64,000 nucleotides of DNA, taken from positions 69,068,001-69,132,000 of the forward strand of contig OX597821.1 in assembly GCA_951406725.2 (NCBI GenBank), written 5' to 3'. Under the pieces are notes generated by a model. That model ran no database searches. It worked only from the letters and a program-made list of their open reading frames with translations, and was not told where the DNA came from. The translations under genes and the position numbers were made by a program. Positions 3,686 to 59,716 of this stretch are shown piece after piece; within the stretch, counting starts at the first letter, position 1; every line of letters begins with the position of its first letter. The stretch comes from Octopus vulgaris (Eukaryota).

Positions 3686-4869
3686 CTTGCTAATGTTTCT
3701 AGACATGGTTGCTTGACTTGTTAAATAGAGGAGCCAAATACCCTTAAATCACACTTCATTCCCTTAAAACCAGGACATATTGGATAGTGTGGTCCTTGAT
3801 AAGTAAAATGATGGGATGGTTATCATTAGAATGGTTTAAGATCATATTCCTGTTTTATCAGGGCTTACTTTGGGCTAAACATATTATGTTCTTAGCCATA
3901 TATACTTCTGTGTTTGTGTCTGTGTGCACGGTAAAACCTGATGAGTAGATTTTGTAGTTGTTATTCACAGGGCTAGCTAGTTGTGAATAGGCCCAGTTAG
4001 AACGGAAACATGATTAACTGTGAAAACTAGTCACGAAATAAAGAATACAACATATTGTACCTCTTGAAGAATTGAGTGTATTAATCAATATGTTTGAGCC
4101 TTGTTATTATGAACAAAGAACAACATTTATCTGTGTACTCTATGTATCTGTCTATCTGTCTGTTTATCTATTTGTCTGTCTGGTCTGTCTAGCTCTCTCT
4201 CTCTCTTTCTGACTATCTGTCTCTCTGTCTCTCAGTCTATCTGTCTGTGTATCTGTCTATCCATCTGTCAGTAAACTGTTTTTCAAATTCTGCTTCTTGC
4301 AACAATTTCCATTGGCATTGTCTCCCAGACAAGAGGCTCAACAACTACAACAATCAGAACTAACAACAACTATAGCAGTAAAGCTACACCTATTTCCTTC
4401 TACACTTGGAATGGTGAATGCTGCCATCTTTAATATACCCAACTACTGCTTACATTTTAAACACCATAATCCTCCTCATTGAAGGCACACTAAACACTGT
4501 TCCCCTTTAAGCCTGCTATTTCTCATAGGTTACCATATTAGATAGTGAAAATGCATGAATGTTGCACCATCACATTTGCCCCTTTTTATTAATTTGATTA
4601 CATCATTTTTAAATAAGATTACTATCCCCTGTATTCATTTGTTGTAGCATATAGTGTGGAAAGAGTGAGTGTTATGTTAAGCATCACTGTTGAGGCTTTC
4701 TGATTCATCTGTATATTAATCTTAGTATTCAAGATACCTTACCTGTATATGTTCCTCCCGTATTATTTAGCCCTCTGCCTGTCTCTATTATATATATATA
4801 TATCTTTACATACACATGTGTGTATTATATGTATCTGTAAATAATTAATATGGTTGTAAGAAAAATGAA

Positions 4870-15368: not shown

Positions 15369-15439
15369 CATACATACATACACATATATATATATATATA
15401 TATATATACGCGAGAATGAAGCAACAAGAATGGATAGGT

Positions 15440-15530
15440 TTTTAGTACAATCGTTTCATACAAGGACAGGTTTTATTAAAAGTTGCAAAAATTACAGCAT
15501 ATAAACGTGTCCCGTACTCATCAGCTAAAA
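15440..15530 (-). ncRNA. Type I hammerhead ribozyme motif with 60-nt stem II
   Basis: UUUUAG CUGAUGA GUACGGGACA...UGUCCUUGUAU GAAAC GAUU GUA^CUAAAA. Complete core, 6-bp stem I, near-palindromic stem III ACGAUUGU. Confidence 0.8.
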
Positions 15531-15829
15531 TACATGTGAGTTCTCTAGACATCCTAGTGGTTGAGGCTATACTCATGAAGTAATGTAGATAATTAAGTAA
15601 CATAAACAGATTTCAAAAGTTCATTAAAGTTCTTTAAAGATGATGTACAGTCTTATCACAGAATTTTAAAAAAGTCTTAATAGCATCACAGAGAAGGTGA
15701 CCTAATCCATAGTGCACATATGAATTTCCAGAGATATGATGAGGGATTACATACTCACAGAAGACAAATTTATCCATTGTTAATTACAACGAGGTGGGTT
15801 TCAATTCCTGCTTATTAGCATTACAGAGA

Positions 15830-15956
15830 TTTTAGCTGATGAGTACGGGACACGTTTATATGCTGTAATTTTTGCTGATGAGTACGGGACACGTTTATAT
15901 GCTGTAATTTTTGCAACTTTTAATAAAACCTGTCCTTGTATGAAACGATTGTACTA
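15830..15956 (+). ncRNA. Rearranged copy of the same hammerhead
   Basis: Same core. 39-bp tandem duplication (15835/15874) gives two CUGAUGA boxes, and the 3' strand of stem I is shortened to CUA. Confidence 0.55.
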
Positions 15957-16119
15957 TCCATTCTTGTTGCTTCATTCTCGCTTATAATCACCCCACATTA
16001 CTGTATTGTTAAATCAGTATAGTTTTTTTTGGTGCATCTAAGTTAGGTACCATATTCAAGTAAATTCATTTAAATTAACTTGAATCTTTATTGCTTTTTA
16101 TATATATATATATATATAT

Positions 16120-18947: not shown

Positions 18948-21900
18948 TGATTGATTGATTGATTCTAGTTTCAGCTTATGAGCTGTGGCCATGCTGGGGC
19001 ACCGCCATTTGGTGTTGCTACTTGGTTTCACTTCATGGAGGCTTTCTAGCAACTGCTATTTGGTGCATGAGAGAGTTCGATGCAGCTGCCCTCATCTGCC
19101 CCTCCTGCCGTGAAGTTGGTTCATCTGGGACACCTGACAGGAAGAGATCCAGCTTCATTTTAAAGACATCTGTATCCACCCCATGCAGGTCTCTCAGGTT
19201 CTTCGGGAGGATATTGAAGAGCTGTGGGCCTCGGAAGCCCAGGCTATCACAGTATCTTGTCCTACATCTTGATGGCAGGTTTGGAGTCCTAGGCACCACG
19301 CAGTGGCGCCCAGTTCTGGCATTTGCGTAACTCTCGATGCCAAAGTTCAGGACACTTCCCTCCAGGATCTTCCAGATGTATATTATGGCATATCTTTCCC
19401 GCCTACGCTCCAGGGAATATAATTTTAATCTCTTGAGTCTTTCCCAGTAGCTTACATTCTGCATAGAGGCTATCTTCTTTGTGTAGCTTCGTTGGATCGC
19501 CTCAAGTTCTGTGATAAACTTGACACTGGATGGTGACCATAGCTGAGAGCAATAGTCAAAGTGGCTTAGGACAAGTGTCTTCCAGAGGACCATCATGGTT
19601 TCTTGTTCTCTTGTTCTAAAGGTTCTAAGAATCCATCCAGCCAGCCGTCTACATTTCATTGTCAGTTTAGCAACATGTACATGAAAGGTCGCGTCATCAC
19701 TCATGTGAATACCCAGGTCACGCACTGATTGTGCCTCTGGGATTGCAATCCCTCCGGGTCCAGTGTATTCATTGGGTATTGCATTCAGTTTTGCATGCTG
19801 ATAGTATAAAGCTTGAAACTTTCCAGCATTGAACTGCATGCTATTCTTTTCAGCCCACTTGTATATTTCGTCCAGCTCACATTGCAGGTGTTTAGTGTCC
19901 TCAGGGTTCTGTATTGCCTGTGAAACTTTTGTATCATCTGCATAACTTGTGATCGTGGCTCTCTGCGTGGCTGAGGGCATGTCTGAGAGGGCCATTATGA
20001 ACAGTAGTGGTCCCAGAACAGTGCCCTGCGGAACACCGCTCACTATTTGTGTGTTAATGGAGGTGGCCCCATTGGCTACTACCACCTGACTTCTATCCTT
20101 CAGAAAGTCATGAAGCCATTCTCCCAGTTTTCCAACAATGTTGAGATCACGCAGTTTGTGACATATCATTCCATGATCGACTTTATCAAAGGCCTTTGCA
20201 AAGTCGAGATATATCACTTCCACATTTGAGTGGTTGAGCAGCCGTTTCAGCACCCAGTCATAGTGTTGTAGGAGCTGAGTTAAACAGCTTCTCCCTGGTC
20301 GGAAACCATGTTGGGTGTCGGGCAGCAAGTCATTCTCTTCAAGGAAGGTGATCAGCTTCCTTCTGACTATTCGTTCCATGACCTTGCTGATGTGTGAGGT
20401 CAGAGAGATAGGTCTATAGTTCTTGGCTTCCGCTCTGCTACCTCCTTTATGAATGGGGCATATTTTACCTTCCTTCAGTTTTCCTGGAAGTTTGCCAGCT
20501 GCAAGGAAGCTCTGAAAGAGGAACTGCAGTGGTCTTGCTAGGACTCTCTTACATGCTTTTAGGAGGATTGCCGGGAATCCATCGGGGCCAGTAGCTGAGT
20601 CTGTTTTCATTTCATCTATAGCCTTGGTTACATCGTCTTCATTTATATCGATGTAATCTATCGTCGCCGCCTCTGATTTTATATCTGCAGTGGTAAAAAA
20701 GTCAGTTGGATTGGTGATTTGGAGATGCCCAAGGGGTGGAGTGAAAACACTCTTGAATTGCTCATTCAGTATTTCACTTACCCTCATTGGTTTTTCTGTA
20801 AGTGTGCCATCCTTTTCGAGGAGTGGCCCTATTCTACAGTGCACTGTAGCTGTTTCTTTGGCATACCTGTAGAAAGCTCTGGGGTTAGATTTTATGTTTT
20901 CTACAGCCCAGGCTTCTTTGTCTGCTCTTTCTTTTTCATGGGAGAGTTGCAGACATTTTTCGATTTCCAACAGTTTTATTTTTAGGCGGGACTTTTCACT
21001 GCTTTCAATCTGTTTGTTTAGGCGATTTGAAAATTTCGTACGCCGTCTCATTAAAATTTTCCTCTCTCTGGGGATTTTGTTCTTGTGTACAGTGGCCTTT
21101 CTCTCTGGGACACATTTGTAGCATATGGCTTGCATTACAGACATGAATTGTTGAAGTTTCACGTCGATGTCTGGCGAGGAGAGACATTCAGGCCAGTTTT
21201 GTTTGAGGATCTCTTTCTCAATTTGTTTCCAGTTTGCCTTATGGTAGTTCAAGCTGGAAAGATTTTGAGGGTTTCTTGTAGGCTGCATGTCCGTGCTCTC
21301 TTTTGGCCCGTACATGGTCAGCTCTACCATGTTGTGATCCGAGAGTAGTGTCGGTGTCACTTTCACATTATGGATGAGATCCATGTCATTTGTGAAGCAG
21401 AGATCCAGTGTGTTACCTGCCCTGGTTGGTTGGAGTATTACCTGCTCCATGTACAGGGTGTTGATGAGGTTCAGGAGGGACCTCGCCTGTCCTCGTTCAC
21501 ATCTTGTCATTCCTGGGAGAGAAAGGCCCTCGGGCCATCTGACATTGGGCAGATTGAAGTCTCCCATAAGAAGCACACCTATGTGTTGTTCTAATGTGGT
21601 TAGAATTTCTTCTATTTTTATAAGGCAGTCTTCGAACTTGCCCACATGGCTTGGGGCATCTGGAGGGCGATATGTAGCACACACAACTACATCAAGTTGC
21701 CTAATATGTACAATTAGTGTGTCACACACCGAGTTTGAGTATGACAAGAGGACCTGGGGTGTGAGGTCCTCACGGATGTACATAGCAACACCTCCATGAC
21801 TCCTTTCTTTCCTGTCGGTCCGTAGTACAGCATACTGTGGTATGTGTAACTCCGCATCTGCTATGTCCGGTTTCAGGTGCGTTTCTGTAAGTGCTATGCA

Positions 21901-22000
21901 TAAGGCTTGATTGCATGCAACAAAGTCTCTCAGGAACGGGATCTTTGTCCTGTTACTGAGTGTTTGCAGTCCTCTGATGTTCAGTAGGAGTATAGCCCTG
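18948..22000 (-). mobile_element. CR1-group (CR1/L2/Crack-like) LINE, 5'-truncated, ORF1 absent
   Basis: APE+RT ORF, ~70-bp 3' UTR with a stem-loop, (AATC)n tail at 18948-18964. Possible short TTATGA target duplication. Confidence 0.9.
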
Positions 22001-22071
22001 AGTATTATGACATCACTTGGTGTAATGTTATATTGCTTCCACAACTGTTCCAGTTGTTGAAATGTGGGCAT
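19033..22071 (-). CDS. LINE ORF2: apurinic-like endonuclease + reverse transcriptase (1012 aa from first in-frame ATG)
   Basis: Endonuclease motifs LLNIRGL, ALTETHL, YRPP, GDFNLP, TLDL, SDHN. RT motifs NYRPISLTS, QHGFRPGRSC, YLDFAKAFDKV, GVPQGTVLGPLLF, YADD. No stops or frameshifts. Confidence 0.92.
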   Translation of the reverse strand: MPTFQQLEQLWKQYNITPSDVIILRAILLLNIRGLQTLSNRTKIPFLRDFVACNQALCIALTETHLKPDIADAELHIPQYAVLRTDRKERSHGGVAMYIREDLTPQVLLSYSNSVCDTLIVHIRQLDVVVCATYRPPDAPSHVGKFEDCLIKIEEILTTLEQHIGVLLMGDFNLPNVRWPEGLSLPGMTRCERGQARSLLNLINTLYMEQVILQPTRAGNTLDLCFTNDMDLIHNVKVTPTLLSDHNMVELTMYGPKESTDMQPTRNPQNLSSLNYHKANWKQIEKEILKQNWPECLSSPDIDVKLQQFMSVMQAICYKCVPERKATVHKNKIPRERKILMRRRTKFSNRLNKQIESSEKSRLKIKLLEIEKCLQLSHEKERADKEAWAVENIKSNPRAFYRYAKETATVHCRIGPLLEKDGTLTEKPMRVSEILNEQFKSVFTPPLGHLQITNPTDFFTTADIKSEAATIDYIDINEDDVTKAIDEMKTDSATGPDGFPAILLKACKRVLARPLQFLFQSFLAAGKLPGKLKEGKICPIHKGGSRAEAKNYRPISLTSHISKVMERIVRRKLITFLEENDLLPDTQHGFRPGRSCLTQLLQHYDWVLKRLLNHSNVEVIYLDFAKAFDKVDHGMICHKLRDLNIVGKLGEWLHDFLKDRSQVVVANGATSINTQIVSGVPQGTVLGPLLFIMALSDMPSATQRATITSYADDTKVSQAIQNPEDTKHLQCELDEIYKWAEKNSMQFNAGKFQALYYQHAKLNAIPNEYTGPGGIAIPEAQSVRDLGIHMSDDATFHVHVAKLTMKCRRLAGWILRTFRTREQETMMVLWKTLVLSHFDYCSQLWSPSSVKFITELEAIQRSYTKKIASMQNVSYWERLKRLKLYSLERRRERYAIIYIWKILEGSVLNFGIESYANARTGRHCVVPRTPNLPSRCRTRYCDSLGFRGPQLFNILPKNLRDLHGVDTDVFKMKLDLFLSGVPDEPTSRQEGQMRAAASNSLMHQIAVARKPP

Positions 22072-23357
22072 CCGTTGTGTGTGTTGTGTTATATCACTTC
22101 CCGCTGTCAATTAGAATCATGTTATTGTAGACCTGCCAATTATTCCAATTTCAATCTAATGACTTAGTTAAGATAAATGTAATTTAGCTAAGTATTGTTT
22201 TGAATTAGTGGTTGATGTCTAAGTTAACACTCACCTACATTATATTCATTCACTTATCTAGTGCTTACATTTGACTATCTTGCCAGATGCTGTTTTTTTT
22301 ATTTATTATTATTTGATTTTTTTTTTTTACTTTTTGAATTTTTATGGTTTCATCAAAGGAGAGGAGGCAGCATCATTGTGACCTTTGCAGGACCTCCAAG
22401 ATTGGTGCAAGGAGGGGAAGGGAAGGAGAAATCACCACTTGTGGGTTTGATGCTAACCACTAGTATAGCCCTGCTGGAAGTCTGTGGTTGCAGGTGGGCC
22501 GGCAAATAAATAGGGCAGAAAATACAGCAATATATTTAAACCATCACACACACACACACACGTGTGCGTGCGCACATGTGTGTGTAGGCAATACAATGGA
22601 CTTGGGCCATGCCAAACTCTTGTTATATCTGAAAGCAAGCTTCTTCCTTGTGTAAAATTCAATAACACAAACAGTGACTCTTTGCAAGGGAGGGTGTGTT
22701 ATAGAACACAACCCATCAGCTAGAAATAACTGTCAAATATCCTTGTTTTCTATTTTAAATAGTTTCTCTTACTCTAGGTACCGATTTAGGGTCTATGGCC
22801 TATGGGGATATTGAATAGTAATGTTCCAGGTTTTACTAGATGGTTCCTTAGATTCTATATCATCATCATCAACCCTTGGCCATTACTGTGTCATGTCTTA
22901 TGACTCATAGGACCAGATACTTGATTTCCATGGCATATTAGTGACTGAGATCACAAATCTTTTTCCTGAATGGGATGCCAATCTGTCATAGTGTATCTAT
23001 TACATAGAGCAATGTGAAATGAAGTGTTTTGCGGAAGAACACAATTTACTACGCGCTTGAGGTATTGAAATTACAATCCTACAATCTCGAGTTCAACACC
23101 CTAGTTACTAGGCTATTCTCCTTAGATTAGAAGTACTTTATTATTTTTTGCTTTTGTTTTCACAGTCTTACTGAATATCATTTATGTAATATCAGCACTT
23201 TGTTAGTTGGTTAATTTTGTTTCTACTTGTAATTTCTGCTTGTATAATGCAAATTTATTTTCTCAGCTTTCAGTTTATGGTGTTTCATGATATAGTCAAT
23301 TTTTTTTTTTTTTTCATGTTTAAAAGAATTAAGAAACATTAAGAAACATAAAAATAA

Positions 23358-30249: not shown

Positions 30250-30817
30250 TCATCATCATCATCATCGTTTAACGTCCGCTTTCCATGCTAGCATGGGTTG
30301 GACGGTTCAACTGGGGTCTGGGAAGCCCGAAGGCTGCACCAGGCCAGTCAGATGTGGCAGTGTTTCTACAGCTGGATGCCCTTCCTAACGCCAACCACTC
30401 CGAGAGTGTAGTGGGTGATTTTATGTGCCACCGACACAGGTGCCAGACGAGGCTGGCAGACGGCCACGCTCGGATGGTGTTTTTTATGTGCCACCGACAC
30501 AGGTGCCAGACGAGGCTGGCAGACGGCCACGCTCGGATGGTGTTTTCTTATGTGTCACCGACACAGGTGCCAGACGAGGCTGGCGGACGGCCACGCTCGG
30601 ATGGTGTTTTGTTACGTGCCCTCAGCACGGAGGCCAGTCATTGCGGTACTGGCTACGGTCACGTTCGGATGGTTTTCTTATGTGCCACCGGCACTGGTAC
30701 CACAAGGATACAAATTCCATTGATGTTCATCTATTTTGATTTGGTTTGATTTGATTCGATACGATTCGATTCTCAATGATTGATTTTGATTTTTCCAGTT
30801 TCAGCTAATGAGCTGTG

Positions 30818-32640: not shown

Positions 32641-32675
<35 letters not shown>

Positions 32676-32738
32676 CAACCGCAAAATAACATTAATTCCG
32701 CAAACCAGGAGAAAATTAAAAAAACATTTACCCTGTAA

Positions 32739-32843
32739 TTTCTTATACGATGCACCGTTTCATCTATTGTTTAATGGTAAACTAACCTGATTAAATTAAA
32801 TCAAGCCAATCATCCATAGGCCGATAGATTCGTCAGTAAGAAA
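32739..32843 (-). ncRNA. Type I hammerhead ribozyme motif with 68-nt stem II
   Basis: UUUCUUA CUGACGA AUCUAU...AUAGAU GAAAC GGUGCAUC GUA^UAAGAAA. 7-bp stem I, canonical CUGANGA/GAAA/GUA core, near-palindromic stem III. Confidence 0.88.
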
Positions 32844-33222
32844 CAGCCAGATCCGAGCAGATATTATCACGAGGCACCTCTATCCCTGCCTCGGCAATAT
32901 CTGACCTAAAATTTTCAAATCATCGCACTCGCGCCAAATTTATCGGCAGCAAATATAAGCCGCCGATTCCATTACGGAATTAACCAGAAAATTCATAATT
33001 AATCAATATAGGGTGGCAAAAAATTTCGTAGAATTTATTTGCCACCAGCGGCCTAGTGGGAAAAAATTAAATAGTCATAGACCATTTATAAGTTCAACAT
33101 CACAATCAAGGAATGGCCATAATAGGCCATTCACCCACTAGAAATAACAGCCAAAGCTTCAACCGCAAAATAACATTAATTCCGCAAACCAGGAGAGAAT
33201 TAAAAAAACATTTACCCTGTAA

Positions 33223-33327
33223 TTTCTTATACGATGCACTGTTTCATCTATTGTTTAATGGTAAACTAACCTGATTAAATTAAATCAAGCCAATCATCCA
33301 TAGGCCGATAGATTCGTCAGTAAGAAA
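33223..33327 (-). ncRNA. Second tandem hammerhead ribozyme motif
   Basis: Identical to 32739-32843 except one G>A in stem III (GAAACAGUGCAUCGUA). Confidence 0.8.
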
Positions 33328-34117
33328 CAGCCAGATCCGAGCAGATATTATCACGAGGCACCTCTATCCCTGCCTCGGCAATATCTGACCTAAAATTTTC
33401 AAATTTTTTAAAAAAATTTTCTCCTGGTCTATGGTCTATGACTATTTAATTTTTTCCCACTAGGCCGCTGGTGGCAAATAAATTCTACGAAATTTTTTGC
33501 CACCCTATATTGATTAATTATATATATATATATATATGTGTGTGTGTATATGTTTGTGTGTCTGTGTTTGTCCCCGTAACTTAGCGGTTCAGCAAAAGAG
33601 ACCGATACTATAAGTACTAGGCTTCCAAAGAATAAGTCCTGAGGGTCGATTTGCTCAACTAAAAGTGGTGCTCCAGTATGGCTGCAGTCAAATGACTGAA
33701 ACAAGTAAAAGAGTAAAAAGAGTAAAGAGAGCTTATATATGTGTGTATGTCTTTCTGTTTGTCCCCCACTAATGCTTGATGTCTGGCATTGGTTTATTTA
33801 CATCCCTGTAACTTAGCATTTCAGCAAAAAGGATCGATGGAATAAGTAACAGGCTTTATAAATATTGGGGTCAAGGTGGTGCCCTCAGCATGGCTGCAGT
33901 CAAATGACTGAAACAAGTAAAAGATAGAAGATATTCAAAGCACCAGTCTAAAGTCAAAAATGAGCAACAGGCCCTCCTATTGAGCTGGCCTCTGATGCTA
34001 CAGAATTTCAACTGTGTATGCCCGACTGGTGTTTAGATGTGATGTATGTTTGATGTCCATGGTAAAAGTGGACTGAAGTGTGTGTGTGTGCATGCTTAAG
34101 ATCATTTCAGTGATTAA

Positions 34118-59041: not shown

Positions 59042-59231
59042 CTTTTAAATTCATTTATGGTAACTTTAAGAGTATGCATATATAGCTCCTATTTCATTAT
59101 GCTAGTTACCATCTAATGATATTGACTAGTGTGTCAGTTTTTCAGGGTTGCATCATAGTTATTCCGATATAATGTAGGATAAATATAATAGTAACAATAA
59201 TTCTTGGATGAAATTTATTAATATTTAATAC

Positions 59232-59364
59232 ATTGCTACACGTGTTTCCACAAATCACATGATTTTAACATCAGTGCCCATGTCCTTGAGATTAGTACAG
59301 TGTAGTCCGTATTATCTGTGGGCATTAGGTTGATCATCATCATTGATTCATTTCATCAGGCGAT
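59232..59364 (-). ncRNA. Type I hammerhead motif with ~104-nt stem II
   Basis: AUCGC CUGAUGA [104-nt hairpin] GAAAC ACGU GUA^GCAAU. Perfect palindromic stem III ACACGUGU; one stem I mismatch. Confidence 0.65.
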
Positions 59365-59521
59365 ACTGAATTAGTGGATGAATCACAGAGGGATGTTTAT
59401 CCCTTCTAGCTAGTATGAAGGCCTGTCTAGCTAGTATGAAGGCCAATCTACATAGTATGAAGACCAATCTAGCTAGTATGAAGGGATAAACAGCTCTCTC
59501 TGATTCATTCACTAATTCAGT

Positions 59522-59655
59522 ATTGCCTGATGAAATGAATCAATGATGATGATCAACTAGATGCCCACAGATAATATGGACTACACTGTATTAATCCCAA
59601 GGATTACAGACTCTGATGTTAAAATCATGGGATTTGTGGAAATGCGTGTAGTGAT
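59522..59655 (+). ncRNA. Inverted sister hammerhead motif, more decayed
   Basis: AUUGC CUGAUGA [105 nt] GAAAU GCGU GUA^GUGAU. Confidence 0.5.
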
Positions 59656-59716
59656 GTATTAAATATTTATAAACTCCATCCTAGAATTATTGTTATATAT
59701 ATATATATATATATAA

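Follow-up and report, generated by a model that had tools for sequence, protein, structure and literature searches.

An inverted pair of hammerhead-bearing arms in Octopus vulgaris DNA is probably the coding-free remnant of a Penelope-like element insertion

Within a 64,000-nucleotide stretch of Octopus vulgaris DNA (the window), we analysed a foldback at 59193-59694. Judging from its sequence, we conclude that it is probably the coding-free remnant of one Penelope-like element (PLE) insertion, with pseudo-LTR (pLTR) 3' ends facing outward. The foldback behaves like an inverted PLE pLTR pair and most likely descends from one; it is neither an autonomous PLE nor a tandem retrozyme. Its layout, with head-to-head pLTRs, junction palindromes and opposite-strand hammerheads, is already published (Arkhipova 2013; Cervera 2014; Craig 2021). 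The new part is a long helix II, which is present in three families of one window. In a literature search that had most subscription papers outside its reach, we found no helix II of 60-105 nt in animal PLE hammerheads, those of cephalopods included. Lunse 2017, Arkhipova 2017 and Repbase/Dfam may already include such motifs or these families.

The two inverted arms of the foldback differ in 26 of 215 aligned columns (87.9% identity). Between them lies a tandem array with a period of 21, 86% matches and 3.8 copies, and the palindrome CTAGCTAG is undamaged in three of its four units. The original prediction of inverted arms of about 215 bp with outward-facing hammerheads, placed around a tandem 21-mer with a palindrome, was thereby confirmed. 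All of the 21-mer units are in right-arm orientation, so the centre of the foldback is asymmetric; the right arm thus represents the long copy, and its inverted counterpart on the left is shorter. Arm and array join through a 2-nt microhomology, TC, that directly adjoins the first CTAGCTAG; the junction could equally be a fold-back within the palindrome combined with a 4-nt deletion. Perfect 8-mer palindromes begin at 0.5% of positions outside TA runs, and the junction sits at one of them. At the outer ends, where the foldback has terminal inverted repeats, the right end lies in (TA)11 and the left end is merely AT-rich. The only target duplication that can be read is TA, or ATATA with the boundary shifted, within AT runs, and a target duplication of 8-10 bp is absent. 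With one copy of the foldback, no tail of 30-40 nt could be distinguished from flanking DNA, and blastn found no second copy within the 64-kb window. The repeat beside the (TA)11 run is presumably a SINE. Coordinates are collected in Table 1.

Table 1. Positions of the foldback, its predicted hammerhead parts and two comparator elements in the window
Feature	Position	Strand	Remark
Left (short) arm, presumably a 5'-truncated inverted copy of a pLTR-like 3' end	59193..59406	-	214 nt; 87.9% identity to right arm
Small hairpin, 6 bp	59380..59406	-	-7.1 kcal/mol; short arm ends at its 5' base
Array of 3.8 x 21 bp with CTAGCTAG	59405..59484	+	part of right arm's 5' extension
Right (long) arm, pLTR-like 3' end	59480..59694	+	215 nt
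(TA)11 run adjoining right end	59694..59715	.	SINE-like repeat beside
Left CUGAUGA box	59353..59359	-	stem I 5' strand at 59360-59366
Left helix II domain of 104 nt, predicted to be a single rod; 10.1/11.1 is A.G	59249..59352	-	z -1.96
Left GAAAC, palindromic stem III, GUA triplet, stem I 3' strand	59230..59248	-	N17 at 59237
Right hammerhead (predicted)	59520..59657	+	stem I 59520-59526/59651-59657; CUGAUGA 59527-59533
Right helix II domain, 105 nt	59534..59638	+	rod lost
Right GAAAU	59639..59643	+	N17 at 59650
Comparator (a), unrelated young head-to-head pair whose arms have type I hammerheads, 60-nt helix II, ~300-bp spacer	15410..15982	.	left end at (TA)n
Comparator (b), young and unrelated partial tandem; 68-nt helix II in its two type I hammerheads	32675..33521	-	both ends in (TA)n

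Each arm has the layout of a type I hammerhead, outward-facing and decayed, and is a predicted ribozyme. In both arms the order is stem I, CUGAUGA, 104 or 105 nt, GAAA, a palindromic stem III, GUA and stem I', so that the CUGANGA box, the GAAA box, the A15.1-U16.1 pair and the NUH triplet all occur in sequence. The predicted cut falls 44 nt from the outer end of the arm, which places the hammerhead near the 3' end. CUGAUGA was found in each arm as proposed earlier, at 59359 on the minus strand and at 59527 on the plus strand. The string GAAAC-ACGU-GUA, proposed for both arms, holds for the left one, and the right arm reads GAAAU-GCGU-GUA. Stem I has 7 of 7 pairs in the right arm, four of them G.U, and 6 of 7 in the left arm, with a C x A mismatch at pair 3. 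At 15.2-16.2 of stem III the left arm has C-G and is fully palindromic, and the right arm has U.G. Position 10.1/11.1 holds A.G, which is not a pair, in both arms, and the conserved G10.1-C11.1 is missing. Because both arms carry A.G, the template had it as well, and this makes the activity of the parent ribozyme uncertain. The hairpin of about 105 nt that had been expected in each arm survives in the left one, where the helix II rod is the free MFE fold (z -1.96; 8 of 300 shuffles as stable); in the right arm the rod does not form (z -0.83; 57 of 300 shuffles as stable).

Two further elements in the window, comparators (a) and (b), were found by descriptor and have no sequence similarity to the foldback. 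In comparator (a), the arms are identical except for one terminal base and for a 39-nt duplication and an 8-nt deletion in the long arm, both bounded by microhomology. The duplication begins at the template position where the short arm stops. The deletion shortens stem I, most of which is lost in the long arm. A 6-bp palindrome lies at the junction of (a), and a clean TA duplication is lacking. Comparator (b) contains a 246-bp repeat with a period of 484 that is 99.2% identical, as well as a 91-bp 5' inverted piece (a two-piece 5' inversion) with a 19-nt near-palindrome at the junction; the helix II of its two cores gave z values of -4.5 and -4.8. Three of the four comparator cores pass a strict descriptor, which matched none of 200 shuffled windows, and the core that fails lies in the long arm of (a). 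Across the three elements, four of the six outer ends adjoin (TA)n of at least four units, compared with 3.0% of window positions. Rfam misses all three hammerhead elements. One ribozyme anatomy, occurring both in tandem and inverted and placed in (TA)n, is what PLEs produce. As a side observation, the retrozyme-like comparator (b), with its intact-looking hammerheads, is the window's best candidate for a cleavage assay.

The original prediction had preferred an inverted pLTR pair to a MITE. The hammerhead anatomy, the asymmetric palindrome junction, the (TA)n end and the comparators make that reading the probable one; no PLE ORF or further copy turned up in the material searched, and a 2-bp TA duplication is formally possible. 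A PLE pLTR hallmark was found: one copy is inverted and 5'-truncated, lies head-to-head with the other, and meets it at a palindrome with microhomology. Head-to-tail tandem hammerhead units are not present in the foldback, which is inverted, and comparator (b) has two tandem cores. A PLE ORF (RT plus GIY-YIG) is absent in or near the element; the longest frame over the element itself is 63 aa, and no PLE domain turned up among the 150 of 789 window frames that were scanned. The antisense 63-aa frame gave no match at E<=10 among 10 predicted-protein candidates. It did give five weak, multi-stretch protein matches at 32-56% identity, which we read as probably reflecting a 7-aa repeat. None of four motifs, two from the foldback and one each from (a) and (b), matched the octopus PLE consensuses in the part of the PMC8557442 supplement covered, and by eye the Naiad_Obim and Naiad_Ovul 3' ends and the Hydra-1_Obim hammerhead given there are unlike the foldback. 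A 24-nt pattern had no matches in bacterial and archaeal genomes, as expected.

In the strongest rival reading, a transposase moved the element as a MITE or foldback DNA transposon whose TIRs measure 214 bp and whose target duplication is TA; the hammerhead would then be there by coincidence or stem from a single capture from a PLE. The foldback resembles MITEs and long-TIR foldback DNA transposons in being short and non-coding, in its long inverted arms that stop at the same position, and in a possible TA, readable on either side of the ends. Tc1/mariner MITEs likewise prefer TA. We nevertheless consider this origin unlikely, because the foldback differs from such transposons in the ribozyme anatomy of its arms and in its asymmetric centre with a truncation-type junction. 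The same hammerhead anatomy is common to three unrelated families of the window, one of them in direct tandem, and an incidental hammerhead has a p of about 1e-4. Comparator (a) also lacks a clean TA duplication, and the TA at the foldback lies only within AT runs. Such a duplication would moreover account neither for the ribozyme nor for comparator (b). The occurrence of a similar hammerhead in (a) and (b), together with the partial tandem of (b), favours a PLE pseudo-LTR origin over a MITE.

Next in order, and improbable too, is the insertion of a single pLTR or retrozyme monomer, whose inverted duplicate arose later by replication fold-back at the palindrome, or else two independent head-to-head insertions. 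A palindrome and microhomology at the junction would suit either event, and PLEs tend to insert beside each other, as stated in the part of PMC6765202 consulted. Against both, the two arms share their outer end point and carry along none of the flank, and the layout recurs in two of the three window elements and is a described PLE insertion pattern.

We also weighed whether the hammerhead layout might be a chance match in an unclassified inverted repeat. A relaxed descriptor, loosened after the sequence had been seen, found five cores in the window. The mean over 300 shuffled windows was 0.037, with one core in 11 of them and never more than one. When the descriptor is tightened, the left arm drops out, and the right arm is retained only on condition that G.U counts as a pair at 15.2/16.2. 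Rfam reported no hammerhead at gathering score in the window, nor at E<=10 over the element, where only unrelated sub-threshold matches appeared, and we assign the element to no Rfam family. The free fold is not a hammerhead in either arm, nor is the two-arm RNAalifold consensus; one of its 39 pairs is changed on both sides, although two rows are too few to inform. The stability of the entire 161-nt ribozyme region of the left arm does not exceed that of shuffles (z 0.08). The missing Rfam match, the free folds, the A.G at 10.1/11.1 and the descriptor relaxed after the fact all speak for chance. Even so, chance is very improbable, since the relaxed descriptor fitted just 2 of 20,000 shuffles of the left arm, CpG correction restores stem I (see below), and the cleaner examples in (a) and (b) pass the strict descriptor that no shuffled window matched.

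The differences between the arms point to the cause of the damage. CpG-type changes make up 8 of the 26 differences and include three CA/TG doublets; when the same substitutions were simulated, 16 of 20,000 runs gave as many. Placing CG at the arm disagreements yields a 7-bp stem I, whose two strands are restored independently, and GAAACGCG at stem III. Forcing the hammerhead fold costs 7.7 kcal/mol in the left arm and 18.2 kcal/mol in the right arm (7.8 and 21.6 kcal/mol under other constraints), and 4.5 kcal/mol after CpG restoration. Even with CpG restored, the hammerhead is not the free fold of the arm, and one inner helix of stem II loses stability unless its partner has decayed too in both arms. 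From these results we infer that methylation-driven CpG decay damaged both ribozymes. The deaminated C lies on the genomic plus strand in 6 of 8 cases, too few to interpret.

The plus-strand copy had been noted as the more damaged one, and the forced-fold costs agree; the left arm is damaged as well, through its C x A mismatch. CpG deamination, present in both arms, accounts for the greater damage of the plus arm, so selection is not needed. The idea that selection disables the plus copy was set aside: n is 2, CpG decay suffices, and the antisense arm would mask either ribozyme. The entire foldback duplex is predicted at -321 and -305 kcal/mol, compared with about -20 kcal/mol for one hammerhead fold. 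Because read-through of either strand makes the antisense arm first, and the duplex outweighs the hammerhead, cleavage is not expected. A search of the DNA for a record of editing found that non-CpG A/G differences account for just 2 of the 26, and thus gave no sign of retroposed hyper-editing. The remaining rival, integration of a viroid-like RNA with symmetric rolling circle replication and a hammerhead in either polarity, would suit a rod-like element of ~500 nt with one hammerhead per strand, but is barely credible given arms that are copies of one sequence with DNA-type CpG decay rather than an imperfect rod, a unit that is not tandem, and an antisense arm that would mask each ribozyme.

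Separately, all four minus-strand cores in the window (15524, 32836, 33320 and 59359) keep GAAAC, and the plus-strand ribozymes at 15836/15875 and 59527 are both damaged. With n=2, this strand bias of core damage, together with an excess of T over A on the plus strand, could reflect host transcription on that strand.

We compared the foldback with known systems, drawing on parts of the cited sources. Penelope pLTRs are described as head-to-head and inverted, 181-218 bp long, with junction palindromes (PMC3846280). Pen2, Pen2a and Pen3a of Adineta vaga, from the same source, resemble the foldback in their head-to-head arms of ~200 bp, one of them shorter at its 5' end, and in a junction palindrome with microhomology. 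The foldback differs from these in having no ORF or direct pLTR between its arms and no target duplication of 8-10 bp, and its tandem 21-mer centre is its own, unlike the A. vaga pLTRs as presented there. Metazoan PLE pLTRs carry minimal type I hammerheads with low activity as dimers, and in Schistosoma mansoni hammerhead pairs on opposite strands lie 100-700 bp apart (PMC4209133). The foldback shares with these metazoan hammerheads CUGANGA-H, GAAA, a palindromic stem III, an AU-rich 3' flank and opposite-strand pairs. It departs from them in its helix II domain of 104-105 nt, compared with loops of at most 9 nt in all 56 motifs listed in that work, and in the missing G10.1-C11.1, which is usual in the PLE motifs given there. 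At 10.1/11.1, U.U (common) and C.A also occur in published PLE motifs (PMC8557442 File S2).

PLEs with inverted 5'-truncated copies and (TA)n targets, including the octopus Naiad and Hydra families, have been described (PMC8557442). Like Hydra-clade PLEs, among them Hydra-1_Obim from Octopus bimaculoides, the foldback has a hammerhead near its 3' end, a (TA)n target and a non-canonical 10.1/11.1, and its inverted 5'-truncated copy is as in Penelope-13_HM; unlike them, it has no sequence match to the members given in that source. Loop 2 is at most 10 nt in all 26 animal rows of the same work, and the longest of its 34 rows, from spike moss, is 35 nt. As an aside, the 3' ends of Naiad_Obim and Naiad_Ovul have a GAAA box ~20 nt upstream of CUGAUGA, which by eye resembles a permuted hammerhead; Naiad_Ovul is labelled 'half core' (PMC8557442). 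With non-LTR retrozymes the foldback shares a non-coding sequence, a type I hammerhead and a relationship to PLEs (PMC7229834; bioRxiv 10.64898/2026.07.22.740005), and comparator (b) is a 484-bp partial tandem as in those retrozymes. Unlike the head-to-tail retrozymes, the foldback is inverted, so that two cuts in one RNA could not set a monomer free. PMC6962438 and PMC8969392 also belong to the literature considered.

A possible model for the insertion begins with a parent RNA whose hammerhead would act on tandem read-through transcripts and cleave them 44 nt upstream of the 3' end of the element, the cleaving form probably being a dimer held by the palindromic stem III. Insertion of this RNA 3' end was most likely the work of a PLE RT/GIY-YIG protein acting in trans, which would nick a TA-rich site, and both DNA ends would prime cDNA from one RNA 3' point. 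One cDNA would halt after 214 nt, the other would continue into the 21-mer region, and the two would be joined by microhomology at the palindrome. After insertion, methylation-driven CpG decay would have hit both ribozymes. We predict that the foldback is now silent: the antisense arm, made first on either strand, would sequester the ribozyme, and the long duplex, if transcribed, would be an ADAR substrate.

Given a PLE origin, we tentatively lean towards such two-ended priming, at somewhat less than an even chance. On its strand, each arm has the polarity of cDNA made from the flank inwards, as expected from two-ended priming, and two antisense cDNAs can anneal only where the template is self-complementary, which fits a join at the palindrome. 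In vitro, an anole PLE protein cleaves the two target strands at AT-rich DNA and also extends them, and insertion there did not need hammerhead cleavage, according to the part of PMC11167929 consulted. The published alternative, in which junction palindromes are explained by self-priming on an antisense template (Arkhipova 2013, PMC3846280, as far as that source was consulted), would, again for a PLE origin, be a possible though less probable route. The 5' base of the hairpin that ends the short arm and the 5' base of stem I in comparator (a) are possible RT stop sites.

The original prediction had read the array as a possible record of repeated RT template slippage. Within its 80 nt the array contains five differences, where the non-CpG rate of the arms predicts 3.2 (P(>=5)=0.22), and the array is therefore about as old as the arms. 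This equal age fits a minisatellite in the template and slippage during insertion alike. Of these, a minisatellite already present in the template is the origin we tentatively put first, short of an even chance; slippage during insertion, as originally suggested, is possible and ranks second; and early slippage after insertion is unlikely. The 39-nt duplication in comparator (a) indicates that slippage does occur in very young insertions.

A wider proposal, which we regard as doubtful at present, is that octopods have abundant unlisted PLE or retrozyme hammerheads with a helix II rod of 60-105 nt, often inserted as foldbacks and supplying dsRNA behind hyper-editing. Hyper-editing and dsRNA potential are exceptionally high in octopus, and lizard Penelope repeats are heavily edited (PMC5625713, consulted in part); together these make such foldbacks candidate ADAR substrates. 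If the proposal is true, such hammerheads are invisible to Rfam and to published descriptors, with three unrelated families in one 64-kb window, and head-to-head insertion via two-ended priming would contribute a real share of the near-perfect dsRNA behind octopus A-to-I hyper-editing. Three families missed by Rfam in 64 kb suggest that ribozymes in cephalopods may be greatly undercounted, and that retroelement products may be among the elements now annotated as MITEs. Thousands of such junctions would allow a sequence-only test of two-ended priming versus self-priming in PLE inversions.

The window as a whole is AT-rich animal DNA with many microsatellites, a CpG o/e of 0.30 and T>A on the plus strand in 8 of 8 blocks of unmasked DNA. 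The CpG o/e and the skew would fit a methylated intron transcribed on the plus strand. No convincing host exon was found in a Pfam scan of 150 of the 789 frames of at least 38 aa, and a crude splice-site scan of the window gave two unconvincing candidates. At 3938-4040 on the plus strand, a hairpin comes after CUGAUGA and includes CTAGCTAG as well, with GGAAAC further on. This candidate core fails all descriptors and was rejected; it may be a decayed fourth family or chance. The interspersed repeats of the window we take to be Octopus SINEs. A 64-bp x 3.1 tandem at 30421-30620 lies within a GC-richer repeat, presumably a common Octopus repeat. An intact, uninterrupted LINE ORF of 1025 aa with endonuclease and RT domains occupies 19036-22110 on the minus strand, and among the 120 best matches listed its best species-named relative is an Argonauta hians protein with 63% identity.
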